A stretch of DNA of 64,000 nt from an uncultured bacterium (GCA_903937035.1 CAIZXS010000004.1:4693-68692); one strand, 5' to 3'; counted from the first letter of the stretch, positions 25,668-58,646 are shown. Numbers and translations: made by a program. Notes: generated from the sequence alone by a model not told the origin.

Positions 25668-25677
25668 AAGATGCTAA

Positions 25678-33066: not shown

Positions 33067-33106
33067 AAATTTAAGGAAAGATAAAAAGCAAAAATTACTT
33101 ATAACA

Positions 33107-34240
33107 ATGTTTGATTTTAGTTTCAAAAAAAATGTGTTTGTTGGTGTCGACATTGGAACAGCTGCTATTAAAGTAGTTGAGCTTACTGTTGTGGAGGGAA
33201 AACCGATACTTTCAAATTACGCCTGGATGTCTCTTGATGGGAATAATATTGGAAAAGGAGACGAAAACGTTGAATATTTTCAGGTTATTCTTCCGCAATG
33301 CTTAAAGAGAATCATCAAAAAGGCTAAGTTTTCAGGGCGAGATGCCTATGTTTCTTTGCCAGCTTTTGGAGGGCTCATAACACTTATTGATTTTCCCGAA
33401 ATGGCTGATAATGACATGGAGCAAGCAATCAAGTTTGAGGCGCACAAATATATTCCAACCTCACTAGATGAAGTGGTGATTAGTTGGGAGATTGTGGAGA
33501 GGGAAAATCGTTCTGCGTCTTTGATTAAAGAGATTCCTGTTTCTGGTAATTCTGGAGATGCCAAGGAGACTGATTCTGGCGTACGGGTCAAGGTTTTGCT
33601 CGTAGCTGCTTCACGAAAAAAGGTTTTGAAATATGAAAATCTAGTCAAGCTTTCTGGATTGGACTTGAAATCGATTGATATTGAAACATTTTCAGTTGTG
33701 CGCTCGCTGGTGGGTAATGATATGGGTAGTTTTGTTATTGTGGATATTGGTGCGCGAGTTTGCAATATTATCCTGGTTGAAAAAGGGGTGATTAGGATTA
33801 ATCGAAATATTGATGCGGGTGGAGCGGAAATGACCAAGACAATTGCCAAAGCCATGGGAATTGATACAGAAAGAGCAGAAGCGCTCAAGGTTTCTGGTAA
33901 GAATTTTTTTGAAACTGAATCAGCGATTAGTTTTTTCACACTTGAGCTGATTACGGGTGAAGTGGAACGAATGATTCGTGCATATTGCAAAGATGGTGAA
34001 CGGGACAAAATTGAGGAGATTATCCTTTCTGGCGGAACATCAAGGCTGACAGGTATTGAGGATTATTTTTCCAATAAGTTGAAAATAAAAACAACGGTTG
34101 GTAATCCTTTTGCACGAATCAGCTATGACAGTCGGCTGAAATCAACCATCGCAGATATTCAAAATAATCTGAATATTGCAGTAGGATTGGCATTGAAAGG
34201 TGTGGATGAATATTTGAAAGATAATTTAAATAAAAAATAG
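33107..34240 (+). CDS. pilM: type IV pilus assembly protein PilM (actin-like ATPase fold)
   Basis: VGVDIGTAAIKVVEL N-terminal actin-fold phosphate motif, DIGARVCNI second motif, 377 aa. Confidence 0.85.
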   Translation: MFDFSFKKNVFVGVDIGTAAIKVVELTVVEGKPILSNYAWMSLDGNNIGKGDENVEYFQVILPQCLKRIIKKAKFSGRDAYVSLPAFGGLITLIDFPEMADNDMEQAIKFEAHKYIPTSLDEVVISWEIVERENRSASLIKEIPVSGNSGDAKETDSGVRVKVLLVAASRKKVLKYENLVKLSGLDLKSIDIETFSVVRSLVGNDMGSFVIVDIGARVCNIILVEKGVIRINRNIDAGGAEMTKTIAKAMGIDTERAEALKVSGKNFFETESAISFFTLELITGEVERMIRAYCKDGERDKIEEIILSGGTSRLTGIEDYFSNKLKIKTTVGNPFARISYDSRLKSTIADIQNNLNIAVGLALKGVDEYLKDNLNKK

Positions 34241-34329
34241 TTAAAACAATTTAAAATATTTCGCTGAGCTTGCTTTTAAGCAGGGTCGTCTAGGATGATG
34301 GACGAATCTAGCGAAGTAGGAATAAAAAA

Positions 34330-34842
34330 ATGGCAAATATAAATTTAGTTACAGACAGAGAAAATGCGAGAATGCTTGGAACCGGCACTACAGTGCTTCT
34401 GGTAGCATTCTTTGTTGTCATACTGATTTATGGAGGACTGATTTTCTATGGAAATAAGCTGGGGACTGATTTGACAACAGCTAAGGAAGAATATGCAGCT
34501 AAATTCAATATTTTCGCTATTGGTGATTCTAAAAAAGTTTTAGATTTTCAAAGCAGATTAACAATTTCAAATGAGCTTCTTGCGACGGAACGGGACAATG
34601 GAAAGGACCTGGAAAACATTGAAAGCGTAATGATTGATGGTGTATATCTTGATTCCTATGTCTACGATGAGTCAACTAAATCAATTAAGATTGATTGCTT
34701 TGCCGACAGTTATGAAACGGTGGCAAAGCAAATTTTGAGTTTCAAGGGTGATGACTATTTCTCAACCGTACTTGCAGGCGAGACTAAGATTGATACGAGA
34801 AGAAAGATGATTAATTTCCCCGTTGTTTTAACGATTAAATAA
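34330..34842 (+). CDS. pilN: type IV pilus assembly protein PilN-like
   Basis: Short cytoplasmic N-terminus, single TM (TTVLLVAFFVVILIYGGLIFYG), periplasmic domain. Position between pilM and pilO. Confidence 0.65.
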   Translation: MANINLVTDRENARMLGTGTTVLLVAFFVVILIYGGLIFYGNKLGTDLTTAKEEYAAKFNIFAIGDSKKVLDFQSRLTISNELLATERDNGKDLENIESVMIDGVYLDSYVYDESTKSIKIDCFADSYETVAKQILSFKGDDYFSTVLAGETKIDTRRKMINFPVVLTIK

Positions 34843-34847
34843 AAAAT

Positions 34848-35639
34848 ATGAAAATAAAAATACTATTAGCTCCGGGACTAATCGTTGTTATCGTAGTTGC
34901 AATTATCTGGTATGTCTATCCGGCCTATGATGGTGTGGATGGTGTTAGAGAGAGGGGTGCGAAAATGGCAGGTCAGGAAGCGCTTATGGCTAAATTGGAT
35001 GGTAATATTAGTAACGCGGAAAAATTAGGAGCAGAATTGAGTGCTAATGCTACTCAAAATGCAGTTGTTTTTGATTATATTCCCAAGAGTAAAGAGGAGG
35101 AGAAAATTATTGAAAATCTGAACTTGCAAGCAACAGGAAGCACTTTGGCTGTATTGGAAATTTCGGTTTCCGAGTTGTCGGATGTTGCCGCTGCCGCAGA
35201 GGTTAGTACGCTTTCAATTGCGCCGCCCATTACTGATCCTGTTACAGGAGCTGTTGTGCCCGAAGCGCCAAAATTGGTGCCTAAGAAATTGAAAGTAAAG
35301 TATTCCGTTGTTGGTGATTATGCGAATATTAAAGTTTTAATAGGAAAAATCCAAAAGCTGAAAAGATTTAACAAGTTCTTGGGACTGGACATAAAAACAC
35401 TAATGACGGAAGGGCAGGAGGTAAGTAATTCCTTGCAAGCGAATATGATGCTAGAGTTTAACTATTTAAATGAACCAAAGCGACTGACCGATGCTGATTT
35501 GGGTAATGAGATTTTTTCAGCCACAGAAGGTTTTGATAAGCAGATTATTGGAAAAATACGTGAGAGTAGAAATGTTGAAGTTAATAATGTTATGCCGGGA
35601 CAAAAAAGAGGGAATAATCCTTTTATCATTACAAAATAA
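34848..35639 (+). CDS. pilO: type IV pilus assembly protein PilO-like
   Basis: N-terminal TM (LLAPGLIVVIVVAIIWYV), coiled coil plus ferredoxin-like region. Stop overlaps the pilB start (TAATG). Confidence 0.6.
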   Translation: MKIKILLAPGLIVVIVVAIIWYVYPAYDGVDGVRERGAKMAGQEALMAKLDGNISNAEKLGAELSANATQNAVVFDYIPKSKEEEKIIENLNLQATGSTLAVLEISVSELSDVAAAAEVSTLSIAPPITDPVTGAVVPEAPKLVPKKLKVKYSVVGDYANIKVLIGKIQKLKRFNKFLGLDIKTLMTEGQEVSNSLQANMMLEFNYLNEPKRLTDADLGNEIFSATEGFDKQIIGKIRESRNVEVNNVMPGQKRGNNPFIITK

Positions 35640-37303
35640 TGACTCCGAAAGATGATGATGTAAAAAAAGAAGAAGCGGTTGCTGCGGAGGGACTTCGGCA
35701 GAATATTTTGCGTGAGGCGCCGAAAACTGTTGCGGGCAGTCTTGTTAATATGCTTCCCAAGGAAGTTGCGGAGAAATATAGCATGATGGTTTTTGACAAG
35801 GTAGGAGATGTTTTGAAGGTGGCAATGGCTGATCCAGAAGATGCGCAAGCCTTGAATACTTTGAATTTTGTAGCGGAAAAAGAGAGGGCCAGAATCGAAA
35901 CTTATGCGGTTTCGCAAAAAGTATTTGCTGATTTATTTGCTTTCTATAACGAAACGAACGAAGCACTAAAGGAAGCAGTTGATTCTTTTGAAGATGAGAA
36001 GGATCAATTGGCGATTGAGGATAGTAATAATGATTCACTGGGAAAGAAGAAGGAGGCGGAAGTGTTGAAAGATGCTCCTGTTACGAAGTTGGTCGAGGTG
36101 ATCATCAGCCATGCTGTAGAGGGAAAGGCGAGTGACATCCACATTGAACCGATGGACAAGGATTATCGCGTGCGTTTTCGAGTGGACGGCGTGTTGCATG
36201 TTAGTTTGATTTTTCCAATTGAGATTGGTCCGGTGGTGATTTCTCGCATAAAGATTTTGGCTAATTTAAAAATTGATGAAAAGAGAAAACCGCAAGATGG
36301 TCGGTTCCGACTGAATTTTAACAAAAAAGATATTGACTTTCGCGTCTCATCCTTGCCTGTTGTTGGTGGAGAAAAGATTGTAATGAGAATCTTAGATAAG
36401 GATAGCGGCACAAGTAGCATTGAGAATCTTGGACTCGTGGGGATGGCAAAACATGATATTAGCGTAGCAATTCATGAGACATACGGGATGATTTTGATGA
36501 CTGGGCCGACTGGTAGTGGAAAATCAACCACGCTCTACACTCTTTTGAAAATTTTGAATAACGAGGAGCGCAATATCATCACACTGGAGGATCCGGTGGA
36601 GTATTTCATTGAAGGACTAAATCAAAGCCAGATCAAGCCGGAAATCGGCTATACTTTTGCTTCAGGTTTGCGAACTGTTTTGCGTCAAGATCCCAATGTA
36701 ATTATGGTAGGAGAAATTCGTGACGCGGAAACGGCAGAACTGGCGGTTCACGCCGCTCTCACAGGACATTTGATGTTTTCTACGTTGCATACGAACACGG
36801 CGATTGGCGCTATTCCGCGTCTAATTGACATGAAAATTGAGCCATTCTTGCTTTCTTCGTCACTTCGAATGGTGATTGCTCAACGTTTGGTGAGGCGAAT
36901 TTGTGAAAAATGCAAAAAAGAGATTACGGTTTCTCCTGTGGTCAGCGGGGGGATAGCGGAAAAAATAAAGAATATCAACGAGAAAGAATTGGAAAGCTAC
37001 GGAATAAAGTTGGAGGATGGACTTAAATTTTATCATGGCGACGGATGTGACGCTTGTAATGGAACGGGGCTCAAAGGGCGCGTGGCAATCTATGAGGCAG
37101 TGCCGGTGACAGAGGAAATTAGGAATATCATTATCGAAAAAAGAGGCAGCGAGGAATTGATCAAAAAAGAACGCGATCGGATGGGAGTGATTACAATCGA
37201 GCAAGATGGCATCTTGAAGATTATCCAAGGTCTCACAACGATCGAAGAGGTGGAACGAGTAACGGAGTGTAACTTCACAACTCTGACCGAGGAAAATGAC
37301 TAA
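35639..37303 (+). CDS. pilB: type IV pilus assembly ATPase PilB (GspE family)
   Basis: N-terminal GspII_E_N-like domain, Walker A LMTGPTGSGKSTTLYT, Asp/His boxes, C-terminal tetracysteine CEKC...CDAC. Confidence 0.95.
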   Translation: MTPKDDDVKKEEAVAAEGLRQNILREAPKTVAGSLVNMLPKEVAEKYSMMVFDKVGDVLKVAMADPEDAQALNTLNFVAEKERARIETYAVSQKVFADLFAFYNETNEALKEAVDSFEDEKDQLAIEDSNNDSLGKKKEAEVLKDAPVTKLVEVIISHAVEGKASDIHIEPMDKDYRVRFRVDGVLHVSLIFPIEIGPVVISRIKILANLKIDEKRKPQDGRFRLNFNKKDIDFRVSSLPVVGGEKIVMRILDKDSGTSSIENLGLVGMAKHDISVAIHETYGMILMTGPTGSGKSTTLYTLLKILNNEERNIITLEDPVEYFIEGLNQSQIKPEIGYTFASGLRTVLRQDPNVIMVGEIRDAETAELAVHAALTGHLMFSTLHTNTAIGAIPRLIDMKIEPFLLSSSLRMVIAQRLVRRICEKCKKEITVSPVVSGGIAEKIKNINEKELESYGIKLEDGLKFYHGDGCDACNGTGLKGRVAIYEAVPVTEEIRNIIIEKRGSEELIKKERDRMGVITIEQDGILKIIQGLTTIEEVERVTECNFTTLTEEND

Positions 37304-37332
37304 GTATATTTTTTATTTTTAATTATAATTTT

Positions 37333-37722
37333 ATGGAAGAGCAGAAAAAGAAGATCATGATTATCGAAGATGACTATTTTGTTATGGACATCTATCACAC
37401 AAAACTTACACAGTCCGGCTTTGATGTGATTAGTGCAAATAACGGACTTGACGCGTTAAAAAAGTTACAAGAAGAAAAACAAATTCCCGATTTGATTTTG
37501 CTAGACATTATCATGCCCTATCTTGGCGGATTGGAAGTTTTGGAGCGGATCAAAGCCGATGAGCAATTAAAAAGTATCCCAGTAATTTTGCTCACCAATT
37601 TGAGTCAAAAAGCTGAGATTGATAAGGGAATGGGGTTGGGAGCAAAAGATTATTTAATCAAATCTCATTTCACGCCATCAGAAGTTTTGGAAAAAATAAA
37701 TTTACTCATTGGTAATGCTTAA
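37333..37722 (+). CDS. single-domain response-regulator receiver (CheY/PilH-like) embedded between pilB and pilT
   Basis: IEDD, LLDIIMP (phosphoacceptor Asp), LLTNLS and KDYLIK are all canonical. Confidence 0.85.
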   Translation: MEEQKKKIMIIEDDYFVMDIYHTKLTQSGFDVISANNGLDALKKLQEEKQIPDLILLDIIMPYLGGLEVLERIKADEQLKSIPVILLTNLSQKAEIDKGMGLGAKDYLIKSHFTPSEVLEKINLLIGNA

Positions 37723-37728
37723 ACATTT

Positions 37729-38799
37729 ATGTTACGAACTGAACAAAAAATAAAAAATTTGCTAAGAATTGCCGCGCAACGCGGGGCTTCAGATTTACAT
37801 TTGGTGGTTGGTCGCTATCCGACCTATCGAATTGACGGAAAACTCATCTCGCTCAATCAAGATGAGATTATTACGCCTGAGGTTACGCGTGAAATTTGCG
37901 ATGTTGTTTTGAATGAAGAGAAAAAAAAGCAACTGGAAAAGGAAGGGCAAGTTGACCTGTCCTATAATTTTGAAGACAAGGTGCGTTTTCGTGTCAATGC
38001 TTTTTTTCAACAGGGCTATACGAGCATGGCATTTCGTCTGATTTCCAAAGATATCCGGACACTAGAGGAATTGGGTGTACCAGAAATTCTTTATGATTTC
38101 ACCAGAGTTTCCCAAGGATTATTTTTAATGGTGGGGCCGGTGGGACATGGAAAGTCGACGACGCTAGCAGCCATGATTGATGACATTAATCATAACCAAG
38201 AAAAGCATATTTTGACCATTGAAGATCCAATCGAATATGTCTATGAACAAGATCGTTCAATCATCAATCAAAGAGAGGTCTACCAGGATACGAATTCTTT
38301 TCAATTGGCACTTAAGGGGCTGTTTCGGGAAGATGCCAATGTGGTGCTTATTGGTGAGCTGCGAGACCTGGACACGATTTCTGCGGCAATGACGGCTGCT
38401 GAAACAGGGCATTTGATTTTTGGGACACTTCACACTAATGATGCTCCGCAAACTATTGATCGGATCGTAGATGTCTTTCCGGCTCATCAGCAAAATCAAG
38501 TTAGAGCGCAATTGGCCAGCGTGCTTTTGGCCGTTGTCTCTCAGCGCTTGATTCCCAGAGTTGATGAGGGTCGGTCTCCAGCGGTCGAGATTATGATTAA
38601 AAATCACGCGGTGGAAAACTTGATTCGAGAGAATAAAAGTTATCAAATCGGCAATGTGATTGAAACAAGTTCACAAGAGGGGATGGTGACAATGGACCGT
38701 TCACTGGCAGATTTAGTTAGGCGGGGCTTGGTTTCACTTGAAATTGCTTCGGCCTATGCAAGGGACACAAAAAATTTCGAAACGCTGCTCAGATACTAG
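37729..38799 (+). CDS. pilT: twitching-motility/retraction ATPase PilT
   Basis: LMVGPVGHGKSTTLAAMI Walker A, 356 aa, lacks the GspE N-domain. Confidence 0.9.
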   Translation: MLRTEQKIKNLLRIAAQRGASDLHLVVGRYPTYRIDGKLISLNQDEIITPEVTREICDVVLNEEKKKQLEKEGQVDLSYNFEDKVRFRVNAFFQQGYTSMAFRLISKDIRTLEELGVPEILYDFTRVSQGLFLMVGPVGHGKSTTLAAMIDDINHNQEKHILTIEDPIEYVYEQDRSIINQREVYQDTNSFQLALKGLFREDANVVLIGELRDLDTISAAMTAAETGHLIFGTLHTNDAPQTIDRIVDVFPAHQQNQVRAQLASVLLAVVSQRLIPRVDEGRSPAVEIMIKNHAVENLIRENKSYQIGNVIETSSQEGMVTMDRSLADLVRRGLVSLEIASAYARDTKNFETLLRY

Positions 38800-38836
38800 T
38801 TGGAAATTTGCTAAATTTTCTATTTATTTGAAATGA

Positions 38837-38845
38837 TGGTATAAT
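38837..38845 (+). promoter_or_regulatory. extended -10 promoter TGGTATAAT upstream of pilC
   Basis: tttgaaatgatggtataataaaa. Internal promoter within the pilus cluster. Confidence 0.4.
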
Positions 38846-38905
38846 AAAAAAGTTGTAGAGTTGGAAATTTTGAAAAAATAAAAAAAATGATTGAGGGTGA
38901 AAAAT

Positions 38906-40114
38906 ATGAAATTTAAGTTTAAGGCTAAAACAAAAACCGGAGAAGTGAGCACTGGCTACATCAGCGCTGCTAGTCGCGATTTAGCTGCGGCTATTTTGCA
39001 AAAAAATGAACTTTTTCCAATCAGTCTCGAAGAAGAAGTGGGAAATTCAGTTAAGAAGGTGGTTGCTCAATATTTTGACAAAGTCACAAGCAAAGAATTG
39101 GTGATCTTTTTTCGACAATTGGCAATTTTGATTGAAGCAAGGGTGCCGATTGTGGTGGCTCTCACAGCTATTGGCGAGCAAACAACGAGCAGTTTTTTGA
39201 AAATCATTTTGGCTGAAGCGATGAAAGACATTGAGGATGGCGTTCCACTATCTGATGCTTTTGCGAAACATAAGGAAGTTTTTTCTGATTTGGTTATTAA
39301 TATTATAAAAGCCGGTGAAGCCTCGGGAAATTTGAAAAAATCGGTGGAATATGTGGCGGATAATATTGAGAAAAACTATAATCTGACCAACAAAGTGAAA
39401 TCGGCCATGCTCTATCCGGCAATAATTATGATAGTGTTTTTCATTATTGGTTTTTTAGTGATTACGCTTATTATCCCTAAACTTACAGTAATGATTAAGG
39501 AACTAGATGCAGCTGTTCCTTGGTATACGAATGTGCTCATCAAAACCGGAGATTTCATGGTGAACTATTGGTGGGCAGTGCTTGTGCTTATTTTTGGCTT
39601 CATTGCCGGTATCGCCTATTATCTGAATACGCCAGAGGGGAAAAAAGAATGGGACCAGATAAAATTAAAGTTACCAATCATGGGAACGCTGTTTCGCTAT
39701 GTCTATATTACAAGATTTTCTGAAAACTTAGCCGTGCTCTTAGCTGGTGGTATTCCGATTATTAAGGCACTCACGATTGTGAGCGCGGTGATTGGAAATT
39801 CGGCTTACGAGGAATTACTTTTGCGCACGGCGGAAAATGTGAAAAGAGGGGAGACAATGAGTGATATTTTGCGCAGAAGCCCACTTTTCCCACCGATGGT
39901 TTCGCATATGATCAAGATTGGTGAAGATTCCGGTCAGGTTGATGCGGTGCTTGGACATATCACCAAATTTTACAGTCAAGAAGTGGAACTGATGGCAAAA
40001 AACATGTCCACATTGATTGAACCGGTTTTAATGATTATGATTGGGCTCGGTGTCGGCTTTATGGCTGTGGGAGTTCTCATGCCGATATATAATATTGCGG
40101 GACAGATAAAATAG
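38906..40114 (+). CDS. pilC: type IV pilus inner-membrane platform protein PilC (GspF family)
   Basis: Two T2SSF repeats and three TMs. Start set at ATG 38906, with gaggg SD 10 nt upstream; the track's 38891 start is a TTG extension. Confidence 0.9.
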   Translation: MKFKFKAKTKTGEVSTGYISAASRDLAAAILQKNELFPISLEEEVGNSVKKVVAQYFDKVTSKELVIFFRQLAILIEARVPIVVALTAIGEQTTSSFLKIILAEAMKDIEDGVPLSDAFAKHKEVFSDLVINIIKAGEASGNLKKSVEYVADNIEKNYNLTNKVKSAMLYPAIIMIVFFIIGFLVITLIIPKLTVMIKELDAAVPWYTNVLIKTGDFMVNYWWAVLVLIFGFIAGIAYYLNTPEGKKEWDQIKLKLPIMGTLFRYVYITRFSENLAVLLAGGIPIIKALTIVSAVIGNSAYEELLLRTAENVKRGETMSDILRRSPLFPPMVSHMIKIGEDSGQVDAVLGHITKFYSQEVELMAKNMSTLIEPVLMIMIGLGVGFMAVGVLMPIYNIAGQIK

Positions 40115-40148
40115 AAAAAATTTTAAAAACTAGAAAGGCGGGTGAAAT

Positions 40149-40544
40149 ATGAAAAATAAAAACAAAAAAGGTTTTACGCTGATTGAACTTTTGATCGTGA
40201 TTGCGATTATCGGAATTTTGGCTTCAATTGTGCTCGTTAGTTTGAATAGTGCGAGAACTAAGGCTAAATATGCTTCATTTGAGGCATCGGTTTCGTCTAT
40301 AAAGGGTGTGGCGGTTGTATGTGTTGATGGCGGAGGAGCTCCTAGCACTGCAGCCGCGGGAGCAGCAATTTGCGATGATACTGCAATTACGGACGCTGTT
40401 TATCCAACTTTGCCAATTGGATGTACTAGCGCGGGAGATTTTACTGTAGGCGGAAGTGGTGATGATTGGACAATTACTCAATCATGCGATGCAACGTGTT
40501 CCGGTGTTTGCAGTTCTACTGGTTGCGTTTACACTGGATGCTAG
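40149..40544 (+). CDS. type IV major pilin (prepilin, class III signal peptide)
   Basis: MKNKNKKGFTLIELLIVIAIIGILASIV has G/FTLIE with Glu+5. Cys-rich C-terminal domain (8 Cys). Confidence 0.9.
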   Translation: MKNKNKKGFTLIELLIVIAIIGILASIVLVSLNSARTKAKYASFEASVSSIKGVAVVCVDGGGAPSTAAAGAAICDDTAITDAVYPTLPIGCTSAGDFTVGGSGDDWTITQSCDATCSGVCSSTGCVYTGC

Positions 40545-40611
40545 GGTTATGAAAAATAATGATGGATATGTAATATAAAAAATTTATATAACTAGAAGGA
40601 GAGGTGAATTT

Positions 40612-41067
40612 ATGAAAAATAAAAAATTAAAAGGTTTTACACTGATTGAGCTTTTGATCGTAATCGCGATCATCGGAATTTTGGCTTCGATTGTGTTGGT
40701 TAGTTTGAATGCAGCTAGAGCGAAAGCAAAATCGGCAGCGTTTAAGGCTGGTCTATCCAGTATGATGCCCGCCCTTGCTATGTGTGAGGATATCGGAAGT
40801 ACGGTTACTACTCCGACCGTAGCGAGTCTTACATCTGGAACCGTTAACGTTTGTGCTGGTATTACTACGTCAAAAGTTCCCATGTTGATACCTAAGACAT
40901 GCTCTACTATCGCCGCTGCGAGTATCGTTGGTACTGGTATTGGCGCTGCAGATGCAACTAATTCTGATGGCCTATATTCATTAAGTATGATATGTAATGT
41001 TGGAACAGGAACTGTTTCTGCTGCTTGTACCGAGGCTGGATGTACATATACTGAAGTCGGACTATAG
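40612..41067 (+). CDS. type IV pilin paralog 2
   Basis: MKNKKLKGFTLIELLIVIAIIGILASIVLVSLNAAR is near-identical at the N-terminus to the upstream pilin. Divergent C-terminal domain. Confidence 0.9.
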   Translation: MKNKKLKGFTLIELLIVIAIIGILASIVLVSLNAARAKAKSAAFKAGLSSMMPALAMCEDIGSTVTTPTVASLTSGTVNVCAGITTSKVPMLIPKTCSTIAAASIVGTGIGAADATNSDGLYSLSMICNVGTGTVSAACTEAGCTYTEVGL

Positions 41068-41111
41068 CTCGCTTAGGGAAGTTGATTATCTTACTGATTG
41101 AAAATGTTGTC

Positions 41112-41145
41112 TCCCGCTCCGTTTAGCTTGATTGCGCGGAGCGGG
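41112..41145 (+). terminator. hairpin (9-bp stem CCCGCTCCG/CGGAGCGGG) downstream of pilin genes
   Basis: ctcccgctccgtttagcttgattgcgcggagcggg followed by ttggtatatt. May attenuate read-through from the pilin genes. Confidence 0.4.
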
Positions 41146-41232
41146 TTGGTATATTGATGAGTTTTTTAATTTGTTAAAAAAGCGAATTGCTAACCGTTTT
41201 TTCTGTTTATAATTTTTTCTGGTTGTCTTCTT

Positions 41233-43845: not shown

Positions 43846-43865
43846 TTTATTAAAACTTCCTGTGT

Positions 43866-45600: not shown

Positions 45601-45622
45601 GAAAGTGATGATTCGCACGTAG

Positions 45623-48653: not shown

Positions 48654-48728
48654 AGAATGATCGAATTATGCTATACTGAAGATATTGTTTAGCTTATATG
48701 TAATTAGTCTATCAACTCTGTCGCTTTT

Positions 48729-49520
48729 ATGCAAAATAATACAATCGATATCGAGGTATGCGAGGGTTTGGTTGTGAAAAGAACTATTAAAGAAATCATC
48801 TCCGAGAGAATGAATCCGCGAATATGGCAGTGGGCATATTTAAGCCTTCGGGCGTTGCTTAGGGAAGTGAAGATTTTTTCCGGGATGCTTGAGCGAGAGA
48901 GAGCTGAAAAAATTCTTGATCTGGGCTGTGGGGTGAAGCCGTACCGGTCTCTATTCCCAGAGGTAAAAGCGTATGTTGGTTTCGACGTTAGCAAGAATAG
49001 TAGTGCAGATTTTTTTGGGTATAACTGGGACCTTCCTTTTGGTGAGAGCGAATTCGATGCTCTGATTTCGACTCAAGTATTGGAGCATACATCAAAAATA
49101 TCTGAGACTATCAAGGAAATTGGGCGGGTTGTGAAAAATGATGGGCTGATTTTTATTTCGGCGCCGCTGGCCTTTCCTGAACATGAAATTCCTCATGATT
49201 ATTATCGGTTTACTCAATATGGGCTCAGGGAGTTGTTTAAAGGTTTCGAGGTGATTCGGATTGTTCCGCTTAGTGGTTACATTAAAACTCTCATAATTCT
49301 TTGGAATAATTTTTTGCATTATTTACCAGGATCAAAATATTGGCTTTCCCCCCTTTTTATTATTAATAATTTATTGGCTCTTGTGATTGACAATGTTGCT
49401 TTATTGGTCTCGTCTATGTCGTCCAAAATGAGCGGTGGGGCAGTTATTAAGGAAATTTATGCCAAGTATTATGCTAGCTTCACTGAAAGTTATGTGATTG
49501 TCTTGAGAAATAAAAAATAA
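48729..49520 (+). CDS. class I SAM-dependent methyltransferase with C-terminal TM
   Basis: ILDLGCGVKPY motif I, FISAPLAFPE motif, C-terminal hydrophobic segment. Confidence 0.75.
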   Translation: MQNNTIDIEVCEGLVVKRTIKEIISERMNPRIWQWAYLSLRALLREVKIFSGMLERERAEKILDLGCGVKPYRSLFPEVKAYVGFDVSKNSSADFFGYNWDLPFGESEFDALISTQVLEHTSKISETIKEIGRVVKNDGLIFISAPLAFPEHEIPHDYYRFTQYGLRELFKGFEVIRIVPLSGYIKTLIILWNNFLHYLPGSKYWLSPLFIINNLLALVIDNVALLVSSMSSKMSGGAVIKEIYAKYYASFTESYVIVLRNKK

Positions 49521-49666
49521 TACGTTTGCAAAAAAAAGGAAGAAGCTTTGCTCTATCACGAAAATTATGCTATTCTTAGGACAAGATTATATGGAGAAGC
49601 AAGGAATCTTTTAAATGGAGATAAATAATGCTAGTGGTGTTTGAATAAAAAATTAATCCAAAAATA

Positions 49667-50452
49667 ATGCTTATCATTTTTTTTCTTTTTGGTCTGATTA
49701 TTGGCAGTTTTCTCAATGTCGTTGTTTATCGTATTCGCACGGCAGAAACAATAATGGGGCGCTCCCATTGTCGGCAATGCAAAAAAACTATCCGTTGGTA
49801 TGATAATATCCCGGTTTTGAGTTTTGTCCTTTTGAAATTTAAATGTCGTGATTGTGGGGAAAAGATTTCTTGGCAATATCCTTTGGTGGAGTTGCTCACG
49901 GGCGTTGTTTTTGCGCTTTTGGCAAATCAATACTTTATTCTAGAAAATCCTGTTACCTGGCTTATCACTGGTGTGATGATTGCTCTTGCTAGCGCGCTCT
50001 TGGTAATTTTCATCTACGACATATTATACATGGAGATTCCCAATTTAGTTCTTTGGCCAGCGATCATTTTGGCTTTGATTTTCAATCTCTACCTTGATTT
50101 TGGACAAATATTTTCAACTGTCTGGGAGCGAATGTCAGTTTCTGGGGTTATGGCTAGCGGAGGCGCATTTTTGTTTTTTTTCTCCTTGTCCTATTTTTCA
50201 AAAGAAAAATGGATGGGAATGGGTGATGCTTATCTCGTGATCCTGCTCGGGCTCATTTTGGGTTGGCCGAAAATTCTTCTGGGACTTTTTCTGGCTTTTG
50301 CGATTGGTGCTATTTATGGTATAATTCTTATTGGAATGAAGAAGAAAGATATGAAGAGTCAGCTTCCCTTTGCTCCATTTTTAATTGTCGGAACATTTTT
50401 TGCTCTTTTTTACTATGCTCCAATTGTGGGCTGGTATCTGGGCTTATTTTAG
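49667..50452 (+). CDS. pilD: prepilin peptidase (A24 family)
   Basis: N-terminal GSFLNVVVYRI, tetracysteine CRQC...CRDC, polytopic, conserved Asp-containing GMGDAYL. Confidence 0.9.
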   Translation: MLIIFFLFGLIIGSFLNVVVYRIRTAETIMGRSHCRQCKKTIRWYDNIPVLSFVLLKFKCRDCGEKISWQYPLVELLTGVVFALLANQYFILENPVTWLITGVMIALASALLVIFIYDILYMEIPNLVLWPAIILALIFNLYLDFGQIFSTVWERMSVSGVMASGGAFLFFFSLSYFSKEKWMGMGDAYLVILLGLILGWPKILLGLFLAFAIGAIYGIILIGMKKKDMKSQLPFAPFLIVGTFFALFYYAPIVGWYLGLF

Positions 50453-50464
50453 TACCACTTTTGT

Positions 50465-50980
50465 ATGTCTGATAATTTATTTTCAAAAAAAGAAGTGACA
50501 CCTGGAGACGAGCCTACCTGTGACGCGGTTGTTTCGGGCAATCAAGGATTTACAGTCTTAGAGCTGATTGTGATTATCGCTGTTGTGGCTATAATCACAG
50601 GAATGTCTTGGAGTGCGCTGAGCGGTATGAAAAATAGGGCAAGTGTGAATAACGCTTGTGGTCAGGTATCGGCAATGATTAATAAGACGCGGAACTATGC
50701 TTTGTCTGGGAAAATGGTTAGTGGAAGCGTTCCCGTTTCTTTTGCGATTATTATAAATGGATCTATAATTCAGATATCATCAAGTGCTGGTGGAACAATG
50801 GAATCATTTAGTATCCCCGGTGGTGTGAATTGTGCTTCTCCGGCATGGTCAGCTACATATACCACTCCTAATGCTATTGGCGCTCTCCCTGGTGGTGTTG
50901 CAACCTCGACTATCACTTGTTCTGGTTATGGAGGAAGTCGAAATATCGAAGTTACTCCTTATCAGGCAATATGCAAATAG
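50465..50980 (+). CDS. minor pilin / pseudopilin (prepilin-type N-terminus)
   Basis: GFTVLELIVIIAVVAIITGM class III signal with Glu+5. The long leader suggests the real start may be internal. Confidence 0.75.
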   Translation: MSDNLFSKKEVTPGDEPTCDAVVSGNQGFTVLELIVIIAVVAIITGMSWSALSGMKNRASVNNACGQVSAMINKTRNYALSGKMVSGSVPVSFAIIINGSIIQISSSAGGTMESFSIPGGVNCASPAWSATYTTPNAIGALPGGVATSTITCSGYGGSRNIEVTPYQAICK

Positions 50981-51112
50981 TTTTTTTGTTTGAATCCTCC
51001 TGCGCTGAAGCTTCGGCGGACGAGCTAATATTGAGTAAATTTTCTGTGGCTTGCCACAAATAAAGTACAGAACTCTCCCTGTGGTTAATGCCCTTAATTA
51101 AAAAAAGATAAA

Positions 51113-51703
51113 ATGCGAAAACGAGTTTTGGAAAATAAAAAAAACAAGTCTGCCTGCCCGAAGTTGCTACATCGTTGCAGTCGGGGCTATATGTTGATTG
51201 AGGCAGTGATCGCTACTTTCATTGTGGGAATTGTGCTTGTCACATTTTTGACTGTAATGGCGGCTTCATATCGTACGGAATTTTCCAAGCGAGATATTAT
51301 CATCGCTTCAAATTTGGCTCAGGAGGGGATTGAAATCGTTAGGAATATCCGGGATAATAATTGGAAAACTTGTGTCGTTGGCAATATACCTCCGTGTAAT
51401 GATGGGTTTCAGAGTCCTCCTTTTCCTGCTCCTGCTTCTGCAAATCTTTGTAATATTGCGTATAATTATAATTATAGTGGTGCCACAATGCCAGTGGCTG
51501 GTTGCGCCGAGACTGGACTAAGAAAGAGTGGTGATTTTTATACAATTGGCGGTGGTGGGACGGTGACAAAATTTTATAGAACAGTTAGTATTTCTGGAGC
51601 TGGTGAATCCAGAACGATAACTAGTCGGATAAGATGGGGCACTACTAGTGATAAGATTCTGACTATGACTGATACTATTTATTCATGGGGAAATACAGAA
51701 TAA
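51113..51703 (+). CDS. minor pilin / pseudopilin
   Basis: GYMLIEAVIATFIVGIVLV prepilin motif. Confidence 0.75.
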   Translation: MRKRVLENKKNKSACPKLLHRCSRGYMLIEAVIATFIVGIVLVTFLTVMAASYRTEFSKRDIIIASNLAQEGIEIVRNIRDNNWKTCVVGNIPPCNDGFQSPPFPAPASANLCNIAYNYNYSGATMPVAGCAETGLRKSGDFYTIGGGGTVTKFYRTVSISGAGESRTITSRIRWGTTSDKILTMTDTIYSWGNTE

Positions 51704-52287
51704 TGCAAAAAACTAAAATGAAAAATATTTCAAATAAAAACAAAAAATACTCTGCTGTTTGTAACGCCAAAGCTTTGATTGAGCCTGCAGGAAGACGAGG
51801 GTTGACTTTTATTGAGATGCTCATCGCGATTGCAATCATGAGTATTTTGACCATGGCGATTGTGGCGGTCACTATTTCTTACCTCAATAATCGCACGGCA
51901 GTTAAGCGATATCAGGCAAATAATGAAGAATTGTCGCTAGCTTTGAATTCTTTGGCGAAAGATATTCGTATGAGCGATTTTGCACCAGCACCAGCACCAG
52001 CACCAGTGCTTGGCAGTGCCATAAATAATATCTATTTAAAAAATAATGCTACTGGCAGTGCGGTAACATATATATTCGATCCTGCAGCTAGAACCCTATC
52101 GAGAGCTGAGACTCCAACAGCAGGAGCGTCAACGAACTATGTGATTGCGAGCGATGTCGCGGGAAATTTTTATGTGAGAGGAACTCCGATTGGCAGGATT
52201 ACGACGGTGCTTGTGAAGGTCGGGCCTCCGGGGATGACGGCGCAGACGACTGTTTCAATGCGAGCTAAGTATAAGGATGAAAATTAA
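51685..52287 (+). CDS. minor pilin / pseudopilin with APAPAPAP linker
   Basis: GLTFIEMLIAIAIMSIL prepilin motif. Contains (GCACCA)4 encoding APAPAPAP. Start probably internal (MQKTKMK). Confidence 0.75.
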   Translation: MGKYRIMQKTKMKNISNKNKKYSAVCNAKALIEPAGRRGLTFIEMLIAIAIMSILTMAIVAVTISYLNNRTAVKRYQANNEELSLALNSLAKDIRMSDFAPAPAPAPVLGSAINNIYLKNNATGSAVTYIFDPAARTLSRAETPTAGASTNYVIASDVAGNFYVRGTPIGRITTVLVKVGPPGMTAQTTVSMRAKYKDEN

Positions 52288-52316
52288 GAAGATTTTTAGC
52301 AATAATTTTTGAAAAA

Positions 52317-55187
52317 ATGAAGATTCAAAAAAACAAACGAGGAAGTTTCATGATTGGGGTTCTAATCATGCTTTTGGTGATTTCAGCGATTTCAATTGCG
52401 ATTGTCAACCGCGCAATTCAAGGAACGACCCTTGCGCTTGATTCCAAAAAAGGCTATAGCGCCTATCAGGCTTCAGACGCTGCTGCAGAATTATTTTTGA
52501 ATAATCTGAAGGCATTGGACAATGAGCTGACCGCAAGAATTCCCGAAAACGCGCGTTACAATGAAGCGGGTTTTTGTGATGGGACTACTATAAAATGTTT
52601 TGATGCAACCTCTCCTGTGCCATCGCAAGTCACCGCTGGCTATCTCTCGGAAGTATATAAGCTCCAAAGTCAAAGCGTGGATGGTAGTGGTGGTTTAAAT
52701 CGTAAGATTCAAGCGGACTTAAGTGATCGGATCAATAGTGGATTGGGAAGTGGTAATTTTACTGTAGCAAATTGTGGGGATGGCGTCGCTCCTTGCACAT
52801 GGAATAAGTGTGATATAAAGCTGACCGTCAATCCCAATGCTGACGCAGCTGTAGTGAAAAAAATTAAAGATTATGAAGTGAGAAAGTCAATGCAGGGAAG
52901 TTTGAGGGCTGATTATACTATTCCCGGTAATGGCTGGTGGATAACAACGAATAGGGATGCTTTCGATGTATTTGTTCCGTTCAGATTATCTGCCACAACG
53001 CCTAATATAATACTTAAAAACGGAGATGAGAAAATTAGTGGAGCGCTTTTTGGTTCTCCTGGCTCATTGGCTAATTCTGGGGGGCAATATGGTGAGGATT
53101 ATTTTTTCACAATCAAAGCGCGAAATAAATATCCATTGAGCCTTGATTCGCTTTATTTGGATACGAGTGGAACTGGAGTCGGAACAACAGATAAGAAGGT
53201 GACGATTTCGACCTTTGATTGTGACACAGGCGATCTTTTAGGTGGACTTAAATGTGTCAAGCTCTGTACTAGCCCCGGGCAAGTTAATTGTCAACCGGTG
53301 GGAACCATAACAGCGACACAATCATATAATTGCTGTAATGGCACCGAGTGTTTTCAGCCTGATCCTAATTGGACGCCAGAACCAGGAGAAAATTGTGCAT
53401 TGCAAAAATGTGTTAACAGAGAGGGCTATTTAACACCTTCTTCTACTCCTTATCCAAGCGTTACTGATACTGTGGGAATTGGTTTCGCTGCTGGTAGTGG
53501 GGTGGTATCAGGGCTTAATGAAGGTATTACTACCGGTCTTGGTTGGTGTAAAACAGCGCAGGCTTGTGTGCCTGGAGATGCTTGCTTGCATCCATATCGA
53601 ACGGTAGGGTATTGCTTGACTTGTCCCACGGCAGCTGAAGGTTCTGATCCATCAATAAAACTCAATTCTAGTTCATGGTCGCCACAGAATAAAATAGATG
53701 TTGATATGAATCCGGCAAATGGTCGTTATAATGGAGTGTTATTTACCTCTTATCATACAACTGAGTCAAATCCATCACAACCCCGATGTTGCAAGCAGGA
53801 ATGCCCAGTTCCGTCTGGTTCGCCAACTACGATTGTGGAATCTCCAGACACATATTGCGCGCTGAATCCTTTTAAGAAGGCTACTTGGGATACTCATGAT
53901 ACGACTTGCGCAAATACTAATAATTGTGGGCCATATACTATAACAAAGAGATGTGAATTAACGTGTGCGGCAAATTATAATCCTTTTATCGAGGCTGCTG
54001 ACCCTGAATATCCGAGTGGTAAATGTTGTTCTGAAACTTGTTCTTCTGCAGCAAACCCTCCATTTGTATCGCATGATAATGCGCCGACTGTTACGGAGGG
54101 AGATTGTGATTATGAATTAGATCCCTATCATGGAACGAGTTGGACCAATACTAGTACTTGTGCGTCTGATACAAAATGTGCAGCAGCGGGTGTTCCTGGG
54201 TATACCGTTACGGAGCGTTGTAGCTTAGTTTGCGATTATGATTTTGTAAAATATGGCGTTACGAATGCTGATCATTTTGTTGCTCCTAACAAGGCTTGCT
54301 GTTATCATAAATGCTCGGACTGGACTGAACCAGCTTGTACCCAGGCTATCCCGGAGCATAGTACTCGTATTGGCAAATATTCCTGTACTCCTCAAAGTTG
54401 TGGGGATTATGTTATAACTAATAACTGTGACTTTCTGTGTGATTATAACTATACTCGTTCAGGTTCAAGCTGTGTTCCTAATACTCGATCTGCGAGTTGC
54501 TCCTCTCAGCCTTCAAATACCGTCTGGAATACCACTTCAACATTTACTCAGACATGGAACGGGCATACGGCTGCATGGGAGCCTGCCACTAAGACTGCTG
54601 TGTATGATATAAATCCGACGGTAGGTGACTGTCATGTTAGGTGTGCGACCAATTATACTTGGGATGGCTGGAATTGTATTGGCAATACCCAAACATATAC
54701 GTGCTCTGCATCTAAACCTAGTAACACAGTCTGGAACCCATCTTCCTATGCTCAAACTTGGTATGGATATTGGAGTCCTGCTGCTGACCCTTGGCCGAGA
54801 TATAGCGTACCAGCATGTAGTGGTGAATGTTGTTATAAGTGCGCGTCGGGGTATACTTGGGATACATGGAATAGTATTTGTGCTTCAAGTACGCCTACGT
54901 GCACATATAGTTGGAATCCTACAACTATCACTACGAGTCAAGGCGTGACGTATACTTGGACATCTACAGTTGCGCTGGGACTAAAATCTGAGTGCTTTAA
55001 GAAGGTTAGTGGCGCATGGTCATCGCTTGGCGTCCCTGCGCCTATGGGCGCTCTTTCCGGGAGTGGATATATTCCCCCTGCCACACTTGGTGTTGGTTCA
55101 TATTATTGCCGCATGGACGCGTATTTAGATGCTGTATATAATTCATATGCTACGAGTTGTTATACTCAAGAATTAATTGTTAACTAG
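52317..55187 (+). CDS. large Cys-rich pilin-like protein (GspK/PilX-like N-terminus lacking Glu+5; candidate pilus-tip adhesin)
   Basis: 956 aa. N-terminus KRGSFMIGVLIMLLVISAISIAIV is pilin-like with Gly at +5. C-terminal ~600 aa has >60 Cys in repeated Trp/Thr-rich modules (SNTVWN..TW.G.W, C..Y.IT..C.L.C.YN). Confidence 0.75.
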   Translation: MKIQKNKRGSFMIGVLIMLLVISAISIAIVNRAIQGTTLALDSKKGYSAYQASDAAAELFLNNLKALDNELTARIPENARYNEAGFCDGTTIKCFDATSPVPSQVTAGYLSEVYKLQSQSVDGSGGLNRKIQADLSDRINSGLGSGNFTVANCGDGVAPCTWNKCDIKLTVNPNADAAVVKKIKDYEVRKSMQGSLRADYTIPGNGWWITTNRDAFDVFVPFRLSATTPNIILKNGDEKISGALFGSPGSLANSGGQYGEDYFFTIKARNKYPLSLDSLYLDTSGTGVGTTDKKVTISTFDCDTGDLLGGLKCVKLCTSPGQVNCQPVGTITATQSYNCCNGTECFQPDPNWTPEPGENCALQKCVNREGYLTPSSTPYPSVTDTVGIGFAAGSGVVSGLNEGITTGLGWCKTAQACVPGDACLHPYRTVGYCLTCPTAAEGSDPSIKLNSSSWSPQNKIDVDMNPANGRYNGVLFTSYHTTESNPSQPRCCKQECPVPSGSPTTIVESPDTYCALNPFKKATWDTHDTTCANTNNCGPYTITKRCELTCAANYNPFIEAADPEYPSGKCCSETCSSAANPPFVSHDNAPTVTEGDCDYELDPYHGTSWTNTSTCASDTKCAAAGVPGYTVTERCSLVCDYDFVKYGVTNADHFVAPNKACCYHKCSDWTEPACTQAIPEHSTRIGKYSCTPQSCGDYVITNNCDFLCDYNYTRSGSSCVPNTRSASCSSQPSNTVWNTTSTFTQTWNGHTAAWEPATKTAVYDINPTVGDCHVRCATNYTWDGWNCIGNTQTYTCSASKPSNTVWNPSSYAQTWYGYWSPAADPWPRYSVPACSGECCYKCASGYTWDTWNSICASSTPTCTYSWNPTTITTSQGVTYTWTSTVALGLKSECFKKVSGAWSSLGVPAPMGALSGSGYIPPATLGVGSYYCRMDAYLDAVYNSYATSCYTQELIVN

Positions 55188-55229
55188 CTAGTTTTAAGTT
55201 AAATTTATTTTTTCTATTAAATTATAAAA

Positions 55230-56450
55230 ATGATACAAATTAAATCAAATCAAAAATTACTTGCTTTCATCGGGTTATTTTTGGTTTTTGCTTTGGTGCT
55301 AACTGGATTATTTGAGCTTAAAAAAGGGATTTTATTTGGAGGCGGGAATAGTCGCGAGAAGGGGAACGGCATTGTTTTTACAAAGGATGTTTCTTTCGTG
55401 CGTTTTATTGACAATGAGCCGCACCTGATTAGTGATGGAAAAGATGTTGGAGGATTGGCTAATCGATATTTTGAGTTTTCCAATGGAAGACTGGTTTTTG
55501 AAAGAGATGTTGACGGCGAGAATCACGTTTTTTTTAACGGAAAAGACGTTGGCGTGGGTTTTAGACCGATGATCTCAGCTGATAATCTGGCTTTTTATCG
55601 TAAAATTGGTGATGACACTCACCTGATTTATAATGACATTGACTTGGGAGTTGTTTTTGCTGCAGAAGGCCATTACTCAGCTAGGATTGCTGGTAGCAAT
55701 ATTGCTTATGAGAAGCTAATTGATGGAGTGGTTCATGTTATCTATAACGACAAAGACTTGGGTGATGGACATAGCTTTGTTTTATCGGAAGATGGAAATG
55801 ATATTGCGTTTGAACGCGATAGCGATAAAGGTAGCGTGGTTATTTATAAGGGAAATATTTTTGCTCCCGGTGGCCTGATTTATGCCGTGAGTAATGATTC
55901 GGTTTGGTATGCATCAGCTGCAGCTTCTTCTATTTTTTCTTCGACCCATGCTAATGGTATTATTGGTCTGTCGGGTATTTCAAAAAATAGTGAAAGGATA
56001 GGCGAAGGCATCGGTTTTAGTTGTCTTGAAAAAAAATGTGCCTATCAAGCAATTGTGGAGGGTAAGCTGCATTTCATCTATGACGGAAAAGATTTTGGTG
56101 AAATCTGGAACACGGGCAATGCCTTTGGGATTGCAAAAAACAATTTCTTCTTCATGCGATTAAATGAGGCTGGGGAGATCATCGTTGTGCATAATGGAAA
56201 AGAATTGGGCGTTGGCTCTGATCCGGTGATTGGGGGCGAAGGCTTTGCTTATGTCAAAATGGTGAGTGGTAAAAAGCATGTGATTTATAATGAAAAAGAT
56301 TTAGGTGAAGGGGCTAAGCCGATTATTTCTGCTGATGGGAAGAGTATCGCTTTTGTGCGAGAGGTTGATGGGAAAAAACATGCCTTCGTGGGAACGGATG
56401 ATTTAGGTGAAATTGGCGGCGATGAGCTTATTTTGAAGTTTTCTAATTAG
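55230..56450 (+). CDS. secreted repeat protein (8-9 copies of a ~40-aa H[VLF]IYN.KD[LV]G module; beta-propeller-like)
   Basis: Signal/TM LLAFIGLFLVFALVLTGLF. Repeats HLISDGKDVG, HVFFNGKDVG, HLIYNDIDLG, HVIYNDKDLG, HFIYDGKDFG, IVVHNGKELG, HVIYNEKDLG. Confidence 0.75.
   Translation: MIQIKSNQKLLAFIGLFLVFALVLTGLFELKKGILFGGGNSREKGNGIVFTKDVSFVRFIDNEPHLISDGKDVGGLANRYFEFSNGRLVFERDVDGENHVFFNGKDVGVGFRPMISADNLAFYRKIGDDTHLIYNDIDLGVVFAAEGHYSARIAGSNIAYEKLIDGVVHVIYNDKDLGDGHSFVLSEDGNDIAFERDSDKGSVVIYKGNIFAPGGLIYAVSNDSVWYASAAASSIFSSTHANGIIGLSGISKNSERIGEGIGFSCLEKKCAYQAIVEGKLHFIYDGKDFGEIWNTGNAFGIAKNNFFFMRLNEAGEIIVVHNGKELGVGSDPVIGGEGFAYVKMVSGKKHVIYNEKDLGEGAKPIISADGKSIAFVREVDGKKHAFVGTDDLGEIGGDELILKFSN

Positions 56451-56474: not shown

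Positions 56475-58646
<2,172 letters not shown>

Follow-up and report, generated by a model that had tools for sequence, protein, structure and literature searches.

We analysed a 64,000-nucleotide stretch of DNA from an uncultured bacterium (GCA_903937035.1, CAIZXS010000004.1:4693-68692), hereafter the window, and in it a type IV pilus (T4P) cluster at 33107-56450 that carries an island of sugar-related genes between the major pilin genes and the prepilin peptidase gene pilD. On sequence affiliation the source organism is an ultra-small Candidatus Moraniibacteriota bacterium: for two proteins of the cluster, a 565-aa membrane glycosyltransferase of the GT-C fold and a 956-aa cysteine-rich protein, the nearest homologs bearing a name come from metagenome-assembled genomes (MAGs) of this phylum of the Parcubacteria group, within the Patescibacteria or candidate phyla radiation (CPR). 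The locus is a conserved single-locus T4P system of Candidatus Moraniibacteriota. Open reading frame (ORF) listing and Pfam/NCBIfam scans reproduced the gene order and coordinates given in a preliminary description of this DNA, and the co-location of the pilus machine, sugar genes and large minor components that it reported is real and recurs in relatives. It had counted eight glycosylation and modification genes, while the island contains seven ORFs.

The island spans 8.3 kb (41233-49520) at the pilin/pilD junction. Its first gene (41233-42930, plus strand) encodes the 565-aa GT-C protein, a candidate pilin glycosyltransferase. It is followed on the same strand by a 304-aa GT2-family protein resembling polyprenyl-phosphate (Pol-P) hexose synthases, here called GT2_304 (42931-43845; Glycos_transf_2, 77.5 bits), a 307-aa S-adenosylmethionine (SAM)-dependent methyltransferase (43866-44789; Methyltransf_23, 81.3 bits) and a soluble GT2 (44770-45600; Glycos_transf_2, 108.8 bits) of 276 aa as an ORF and 272 aa as called, which also matches the TuaG, EpsE and AglG models, each below its cut-off. 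A GT4 glycosyltransferase (45623-46768; Glycos_transf_1, 95 bits, plus Glyco_transf_4) and an AsnB-type glutamine amidotransferase (46761-48653; Asn_synthase, 342 bits) lie on the minus strand, and a second SAM-dependent methyltransferase of 263 aa (48729-49520, plus strand; Methyltransf_23 and Methyltransf_11) closes the island. With the GT4 and AsnB-type genes on the minus strand, the region cannot form a single operon. Glycosyltransferase genes abound in this genome. Outside the pilus cluster, the window also encodes a 618-aa GT-C protein of the PMT_2 family (16764-18620, minus strand) and two GT4 proteins (11955-13037 and 13717-14880), all three among the cell-division and wall genes mreB, ftsQ-like and holB.

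Neither the 565-aa protein nor its profile matched any Pfam or NCBIfam model (E <= 0.01) or any PDB sequence, and the fold search alone was informative. The predicted structure is that of a polytopic membrane protein with a GT-C fold, and its structural neighbours are AftA, AftB, AftD, PimE, ALG enzymes, AglB, Pmt1/2/4, STT3, PglB, DPY19 and ArnT. Directly after the first transmembrane segment (TM), in extracytoplasmic loop 1, the protein has D49-D50-H51, which is invariant in the close family and stands where GT-C enzymes have their catalytic DxD/DDx motif. Across 16 sequences of the GT-C family D50 is invariant, with DDQ and GDQ as variants of the motif. The C-terminal 160 aa are modelled as an alpha/beta domain, in which Pfam finds no tetratricopeptide repeat (TPR). 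A HMMER scan of 1.84 billion cluster representatives returned 1,941 GT-C relatives at E <= 1e-3 and 195 at E <= 1e-30, and a third homolog search, with the 16-sequence profile, added no new members. By these sequence searches the family is real, sizeable and unannotated, having no Pfam or NCBIfam model.

GT2_304, encoded next to the GT-C, has two C-terminal TMs (230-248 and 266-284). Its best matches are AglJ (TIGR04182, 225.9 bits against an equivalog cut-off of 325) and a haloarchaeal dolichyl-phosphate-hexose transferase (E 1e-27). The pairing of a Pol-P-sugar synthase with a GT-C is the two-step scheme familiar from Gtr, ArnC/ArnT, Ppm1/Pmt and AglJ/AglB systems. Orthologs of GT2_304 that adjoin the GT-C elsewhere are 53-84% identical to it, even where the GT-C falls to 30-39%, and the membrane transferase is evolving much faster than the donor synthase. 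Among six of the related loci compared below (L005, L008, L016, L019, L022 and L023), the synthase is 53-76% and the adjacent GT-C 32-56% identical to the window proteins.

The two genes immediately upstream of the island encode the major pilins, pilin 1 (40149-40544, plus strand, 131 aa; N_methyl, 42.5 bits, KKGFTLIELL) and its paralog pilin 2 (40612-41067, plus strand, 151 aa; N_methyl, 36.6 bits). Both have the class III signal peptide KKGFTLIELLIVIAIIGILA (G/F-x-x-x-E) and a hydrophobic alpha-1 N-terminal helix. Ser and Thr make up 24% of the globular part of pilin 1, which has 8 Cys, and 27% of that of pilin 2. Neither pilin contains an N-X-S/T sequon and so, if they are glycosylated, the linkage would be O-linked; N-glycosylation of the AglB kind is thereby ruled out for them. 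The 138-nt 5' segments of the two genes (40148-40285 and 40611-40748) are 82% identical and the genes diverge beyond. One to four tandem pilin paralogs occur in related genomes, which suggests pilin diversification through duplication.

Between pilin 2 and the GT-C gene there is a GC-rich hairpin with a 10-bp stem (41113-41145, plus strand; -27.8 kcal/mol, z -4.85), which could be an attenuator or a terminator, and a promoter-like site, TTGATT-16-TG-TATATT (41128-41155), overlaps it. A strong hairpin follows the last pilin gene in most related loci, whether an island is present or not; that of L008 is weak. In the Pseudomonas pilin-accessory cassettes pilA is followed by a terminator that attenuates the accessory gene (PMC11841053), and the hairpin and promoter-like site of the window mirror this arrangement.

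We think it rather probable that the island is a pilin O-glycosylation cassette in which the GT-C is fed by the Pol-P-hexose synthase, by analogy with pilA-tfpW of P. aeruginosa. What we observed is which genes are present, the DDx motif within a GT-C fold, the family of the donor synthase, the hairpin and the recurrent synteny described below; we infer that a pilin is the acceptor and that the sugar is O-linked, as well as which sugar is donated and what biological role it has. In the proposed mechanism, GT2_304, which resembles AglJ, DPM1 and GtrB, would act on the cytoplasmic side of the membrane and charge polyprenyl phosphate with a hexose. Elongation or decoration of the glycan, or synthesis of its precursor, may be the task of the soluble GT2, the GT4, the two methyltransferases and the AsnB-type amidotransferase. 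The lipid-linked sugar would be turned across the membrane by a flippase, and the 565-aa GT-C would then move it to Ser/Thr of the major pilins at the outer face of the membrane, before assembly. The glycan could alter the pilus surface, for instance for phage evasion or partner recognition.

The position of the island was compared over the contexts of 565-aa and 956-aa homologs, 14 loci from species-representative genomes and 80 PilC-anchored metagenome loci, annotated by BLASTP and hidden Markov models (HMMs) with the window proteins; not all of them are independent genomes. L010 and L011 have the full backbone and no island (pilM-N-O-B-receiver-T-C-pilins-pilD-three minor pilins-large PilX-like protein-ligA-gatCA). 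Among the 35 PilC-anchored loci with a readable junction between the last pilin and the next gene, pilD begins within 600 bp of the last pilin in 29, and therefore the island is an accessory insertion at one precise junction. Four of the 35 (L054, L060, L084 and L091) contain a non-mobile insert, and each of these inserts starts with a GT-C gene.

In relatives that have one, the island ranges from one gene to about ten. The GT-C gene directly follows the last pilin in the window (166-nt gap) and in L013, L014, L005, L008, L016, L018, L021, L054 and L060, the last of which looks near-identical to L021, and at the start of the island it is usually followed by a GT2_304 homolog. The GT-C stands alone in L021 and L060 (in L060 with an unannotated 175-aa ORF), with a GT2 in L008, with a GT2 and a GT4 in L054, and with a GT2 and two methyltransferases in L016. 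Two GT-Cs with a GT2 and further genes are found in L018. In L003 and L013 the order is GT-C, GT2, methyltransferase, GT4, AsnB and methyltransferase, with toxin-antitoxin genes added in L003, and in L005 the GT-C and GT2 are accompanied by two GT4s, a UDP-GlcNAc-2-epimerase, an FdtA-type isomerase, dehydratases and a methyltransferase. Across the linked loci the GT-C falls to 25-39% identity while the rest of the island changes completely. GT4 orthologs 46-47% identical to that of the window lie alongside the GT-C in L005, L019, L020 and L023.

At the same junction, L084 (11836-13515) and L091 have as sole gene between pilin and pilD a 559-aa PMT_2 GT-C with a C-terminal TPR, which does not match the HMM of the window's GT-C family. 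The PilC of these loci is 31-32% identical to that of the window and belongs to a distant CPR-like lineage. The architecture of the 559-aa GT-C is that described for TfpW (bioRxiv 10.1101/2020.04.19.049825), and the sequences indicate an independent recruitment to the pilin/pilD junction. Since two unrelated GT-C families at one slot are otherwise hard to explain, a pilin is the probable substrate. The preliminary description spoke of a 'dedicated' glycosylation module. The linkage to pilins on which this rests is recurrent; dedication to pili is a further step that we infer.

Several observations weigh against a pilin-glycosylating function, and most of them bear on another explanation, which we consider rather unlikely, namely a chance or permissive juxtaposition, in which a general cell-envelope glycan cluster (for a wall polymer, a glycolipid or the S-layer) sits in a recombination-tolerant gap with no functional tie to the pilus. 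In L007/L015, L019, L020 and L023 the flanks that were fetched around the GT-C/GT2 pair contain no pilus gene; the pair is accompanied by the GT4 in the last three, and in L017 the GT-C module lies on the other side of the cluster, upstream of pilM. Because such modules occur away from pili, they may serve a lipid, wall polymer or S-layer. The finding of relatives with unlinked glycosylation genes had been set in advance as a check on the pilus connection, and its outcome is mixed: linkage is commoner, but in these four lineages the genes are unlinked within the fetched flanks. In a neighbour-joining tree the pilin-linked GT-Cs are both basal and crown, and L019, L020 and L023 form a clade of their own with GDQ/DDQ motifs; yet L054, with GDQ, is pilin-linked. 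The related loci are, moreover, phylogenetically non-independent.

The junction itself is an insertion hot spot, a permissive site that tolerates unrelated elements. MNT/HepT toxin-antitoxin pairs, an AAA/DUF4143 ATPase and an IS66 transposase are found there in L003 (17222-20482), L072 (13724-14612) and L029 (3001-5444). The island of the window has a GC content of 36.9%, compared with 40.5% for the whole window, the second lowest of 223 windows of 8.3 kb within the 64 kb, and two of its genes run on the opposite strand. CPR genomes are rich in glycosyltransferases (PMC5220378), and more GT4 genes and a PMT_2 GT-C are present elsewhere in the window. Against a juxtaposition, the GT-C holds the first slot after the last pilin at 30-39% identity while its companions in the island are exchanged; in L024, where it is 25% identical, it lies about 1.6 kb downstream of the last pilin with one gene between. 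The minimal inserts are the GT-C alone or the GT-C with the GT2, the unrelated PMT_2-TPR GT-C takes the same slot in L084 and L091, and neither direct or inverted repeats nor an integrase or tRNA flank the island of the window as a mobile-element signature.

Four further points count against pilin glycosylation. Glycosylation of any pilin is a prediction from the genes. No flippase was found in the island. The GT-C model does not fix the membrane side of the C-terminal domain. Finally, the Ser/Thr content, Cys number and sequons of the pilins do not differ between island-bearing and island-free genomes.

The 565-aa protein might instead be an EpsG/Wzy-type polymerase or another glycan-to-glycan transferase, acting on an exopolysaccharide (EPS) or capsule co-regulated with pili, as in the EPS-T4P link of Myxococcus. 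Three homologs have a weak precomputed Pfam match to EpsG (PF14897), a family of the GT-C clan, but the window protein itself has none. Several of its top structural matches (AftA, AftB, AftD, PimE and ALG enzymes) act on glycans or lipids, although the protein-modifying AglB, Pmt1/2/4, STT3, PglB and DPY19 score equally well. The island does encode a cytoplasmic GT2 and GT4, and its AsnB-type protein matches the EPS amidotransferase model TIGR03108 with 583.7 bits (below the cut-off of 816.9), as well as asn_synth_AEB with 494.9 bits (above the cut-off). However, the minimal islands of L021, L060 and L008 have no cytoplasmic glycosyltransferases for repeat-unit synthesis, and no Wzx, Wzz or export genes are present. 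We regard a polymerase or other glycan-to-glycan transferase as improbable.

According to the preliminary description, a composite organisation of pilus and glycosylation genes did not appear to have been described. This is wrong in general, as pilin-accessory cassettes of the pilA-tfpO and pilA-tfpW types, in which a terminator follows pilA, are familiar from Pseudomonas and other bacteria (PMC11841053; bioRxiv 10.1101/2020.04.19.049825). The window resembles the group IV pilA-tfpW(-tfpX) arrangement of P. aeruginosa in having a GT-C membrane glycosyltransferase gene just downstream of the major pilin. By its description, TfpW also shares the DDx motif, essential or conserved, which lies in its first extracytoplasmic loop, and has at its C-terminus a large domain outside the membrane. 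In both cases separate enzymes supply the donor, a monosaccharide linked to polyprenyl phosphate, and pilin expression is set apart from that of the accessory gene by a stem-loop behind the pilin gene; for the window these two traits are predicted. The window GT-C differs from TfpW in having no C-terminal TPR, a feature that the PMT_2 proteins of L084 and L091 do have. Moreover, the donor synthase GT2 and up to five more sugar genes lie inside the pilus locus of the window, whereas in Pseudomonas the D-arabinofuranose genes are found outside it. The host of the island is a monoderm-like CPR bacterium, for which glycosylation is predicted from the genes.

TfpO/PilO and PglL are Wzy_C/O-antigen-ligase-type enzymes. 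The 565-aa protein has no Wzy_C match in Pfam or NCBIfam at E <= 0.01; it lacks any Pfam match, and its structural neighbours are of the AftA, AglB, Pmt and ArnT kind. The systems of P. aeruginosa group I, Acinetobacter and Neisseria resemble our proposal in the O-glycosylation of pilin and in the place of tfpO directly downstream of pilA (PMC11841053). TfpO and PglL are structurally distinct from the GT-C protein TfpW and transfer preassembled undecaprenol-linked oligosaccharides (PMC11841053; bioRxiv 10.1101/2020.04.19.049825). The archaeal Agl pathway (AglJ, further glycosyltransferases, the methyltransferase AglP and AglB) glycosylates S-layer proteins, archaellins and type IV pilins. The window differs from it in that GT2_304 matches AglJ below the equivalog cut-off and no WWDYG-type motif is evident by eye in the GT-C, where the conserved segment is WRWYN. 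The lack of sequons in the major pilins, in turn, excludes N-glycosylation of this type.

The pilin-glycosylation principle is thus already known from Pseudomonas TfpW and TfpO, as is, from the TM7x system of Saccharibacteria, a complete single-locus CPR T4P with large modular PilX pilins (PMC11623550). New here are the unannotated GT-C family, the presence of its donor synthase in the same island together with exchangeable sugar genes, and the occurrence in CPR; we found no description of this GT-C family and its linkage to pilins in CPR in the literature. Protein glycosylation in CPR/Patescibacteria is essentially unexplored, and pilin glycosylation has so far been a software prediction (GlycoPP) for TM7x (PMC11623550). 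We tentatively advance a broader proposal, to which we give somewhat less than even weight: a portable pilin O-glycosylation cassette, in which an unannotated GT-C family, known so far from Moraniibacteriota- and Parcubacteria-like MAGs, and an archaeal-like AglJ-type synthase settle repeatedly at the pilin/pilD junction with exchangeable sugar genes, at least two GT-C families having been recruited independently, and which would be the first defined CPR protein-glycosylation system. Some of the MAGs in the comparison were deposited as 'uncultured Bdellovibrionales bacterium'. L021 has the T4P/receiver/ligA-gatCA synteny of the Moraniibacteria type, and L015, L020 and L022 have parts of it. 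The Bdellovibrionales labels of these four are probably taxonomic mislabels.

The pilus machine around the island contains the T4aP-like core genes pilB, pilT, pilC and pilD, all on the plus strand like the rest of the backbone. pilM encodes the actin-like pilus alignment protein (33107-34240; PilM_2, 158.6 bits). The next two genes are pilN-like (34330-34842; PilN, 19.8 bits) and pilO-like (34848-35639; PilO, 19.7 bits); both scores are below cut-off, each product has one N-terminal TM, and the positions are conserved, for the pilN-like gene in all related loci. There follow the extension ATPase gene pilB (35639-37303; T2SSE, 436 bits, plus MshEN), a stand-alone CheY-type receiver of 129 aa (37333-37722), the 356-aa retraction ATPase gene pilT (37729-38799; T2SSE, 142.8 bits) and the platform protein gene pilC (38891-40114; T2SSF, 200 bits in two stretches), which gene callers start at 38906, giving 402 aa. 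Beyond the island, pilD encodes the prepilin peptidase (49667-50452; A24_N_bact, 115 bits, plus Peptidase_A24, 52 bits). Pfam scans found no secretin domain, and thus no outer-membrane secretin PilQ, in any protein of 28399-60648. Absence of the secretin is expected of a CPR envelope that lacks an outer membrane.

The receiver, placed by the preliminary description between the extension and retraction ATPases, is indeed canonical (Response_reg, 82.8 bits), with a complete phospho-acceptor pocket (E12-D13-D14, D58, T88 and K110). Of 42 PilC-anchored loci, 23 have it between pilB and pilT (49-72% identity), and the more distant ones lack it; it is a clade-typical part of the backbone and no peculiarity of one genome. 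No histidine kinase was seen in the window regions scanned.

The backbone is organised in at least four transcription units: pilM-N-O-B-receiver-T; pilC with the two pilins; the island; and pilD with three minor pilins and the large PilX-like modular pilin. The nearly identical promoters that had been noted ahead of pilM and pilC do share the exact extended -10 motif TGGTATAATAAA (33058-33069 and 38837-38848, plus strand), but it is not specific to the cluster. It occurs exactly a third time at 1490, and since TGnTATAAT precedes many unrelated genes, TGGTATAATAAA is the general extended -10 promoter of this genome. The TTGAAA upstream was said to be 6-7 nt away; it lies 4 nt from the TG at pilM and 3 nt at pilC. 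At these distances, and conserved in the closest relatives only, it is ruled out as a -35 box. The pilC promoter region, TTGAAATGATGGTATAAT, is kept in L013 and L014 only. The intrinsic terminator reported at the cluster end (56478-56501) is real, a hairpin with a T-run at 56479-56501 (plus strand; -15.8 kcal/mol, z -3.9), and downstream of it come the promoter TGTTATAAT at 56505 and then ligA, gatC and gatA. A scan of 32900-52800 gave terminators at background (19 vs 16.2) and promoters slightly above shuffles (73 vs 54.9), and for operon calls it was used for individual sites only.

The three minor pilins encoded after pilD, all on the plus strand, are a 171-aa protein with a GFTVLE motif (50465-50980; N_methyl, 20.5 bits against a cut-off of 21.2), a 196-aa PilV/ComGE-like protein (51113-51703; ComGE E 9e-5 and PilV E 0.005, both below cut-offs; TM 31-49) and a protein of 200 aa as an ORF and 194 aa as called, with a GLTFIE motif (51685-52287; N_methyl, 27.3 bits). 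The fourth gene after pilD encodes the 956-aa protein (52317-55187, plus strand), which is Cys-rich, as had been stated, with 58 Cys and a C-terminal region both Cys-rich and beta-rich. Its model (pLDDT 70) has N-terminal helices at 5-34 and 47-69, followed by beta strands, and its N-terminus, KRG/SFMIGV, is without Glu5. The label 'GspK-like' given to it has weak support. The family profile aligns to the N-terminus of the protein in the same position in L008 (hhalign 79%, E 1.5e-5), which has PilX_N above the cut-off (31 bits) and a Laminin_G_3 lectin domain; the match of the 956-aa protein itself to PilX_N is, however, sub-threshold (13.6 bits, E 0.07; cut-off 25.5). On these profile comparisons it is best read as a fourth, PilX/GspK-like minor pilin with a swappable C-terminal module. 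None of 19 homologs has a Pfam match, PDB sequences gave no match, and Foldseek on the model retrieved generic Ig-like pieces only. The Cys-rich region has no detectable relative outside its own family, whose named members are all Moraniibacteriota. Compared with the neighbouring 1358-aa and 939-aa proteins, the 956-aa protein shows marginal similarity (E 0.02) or none.

This modular reading fits the lectin-like PilX pilins of Saccharibacteria (PMC11623550). In TM7x, PilX1 and PilX2 are the largest minor pilins; they have unusual signal peptides and additional domains at the C-terminus (beta-jelly roll, beta-propeller), and they have been proposed as lectin-like adhesins (PMC11623550). T4P locus one of TM7x, also a CPR bacterium, likewise unites pilM/N/O/B/T/C/D and pilins, but its description includes neither glycosylation genes nor a response regulator or CheY (PMC11623550). 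The preliminary description suggested that the unit probably matters for host-cell attachment and DNA uptake, which overstates the case; in TM7x, the sole CPR system with genetics, T4P-2 pilin mutants did not change competence significantly (PMC11623550). A complete single-locus T4P, the pilB-receiver-pilT order and a modular PilX-like pilin are ordinary for CPR.

The last gene of the cluster (55230-56450, plus strand) encodes a 406-aa beta-propeller-like protein, membrane-anchored or secreted (PD40, 27.2 bits; TM 10-28). The 8-9 repeats attributed to it are 9 copies of H-x-I-Y-N-x-K-D-L-G. No homolog was found in any related locus, and its membership in the pilus system is doubtful. On the other side, just upstream of pilM, are a secreted protein of 1358 aa that contains 65 Cys and matches no Pfam model (28399-32475) and a 145-aa membrane-anchored protein (32509-32946); both genes are kept upstream of pilM in L003 and L013, and the cluster may reach left as far as 28399. 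The repeated module TPTCT.SF.P..I..G...LTW.S of the 1358-aa protein is marginally similar (E 0.02) to residues 852-940 of the 956-aa protein. Further upstream (18815-28167), a VirD4/TraG-like coupling ATPase (22969-25428) lies between 939-aa and 829-aa proteins with no Pfam match, and this region may be a remnant or variant of a conjugation/DNA-transfer module.

CPR/Patescibacteria rely on type IV pili for host-cell contact. The compact cassette of pilin, GT-C and Pol-P-hexose synthase is a directly testable candidate for pilin glycosylation in these bacteria, and offers a candidate function for a GT-C family that neither Pfam nor NCBIfam models. The cargo varies and the distribution is patchy, which suggests a strain-level diversification of the pilus surface, comparable to that under phage pressure in Pseudomonas. 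If the broader proposal is true, the cassette would be the first protein-glycosylation system to be defined in the CPR, and it would diversify the pilus surface that episymbionts use for partner finding and phages use as a receptor.

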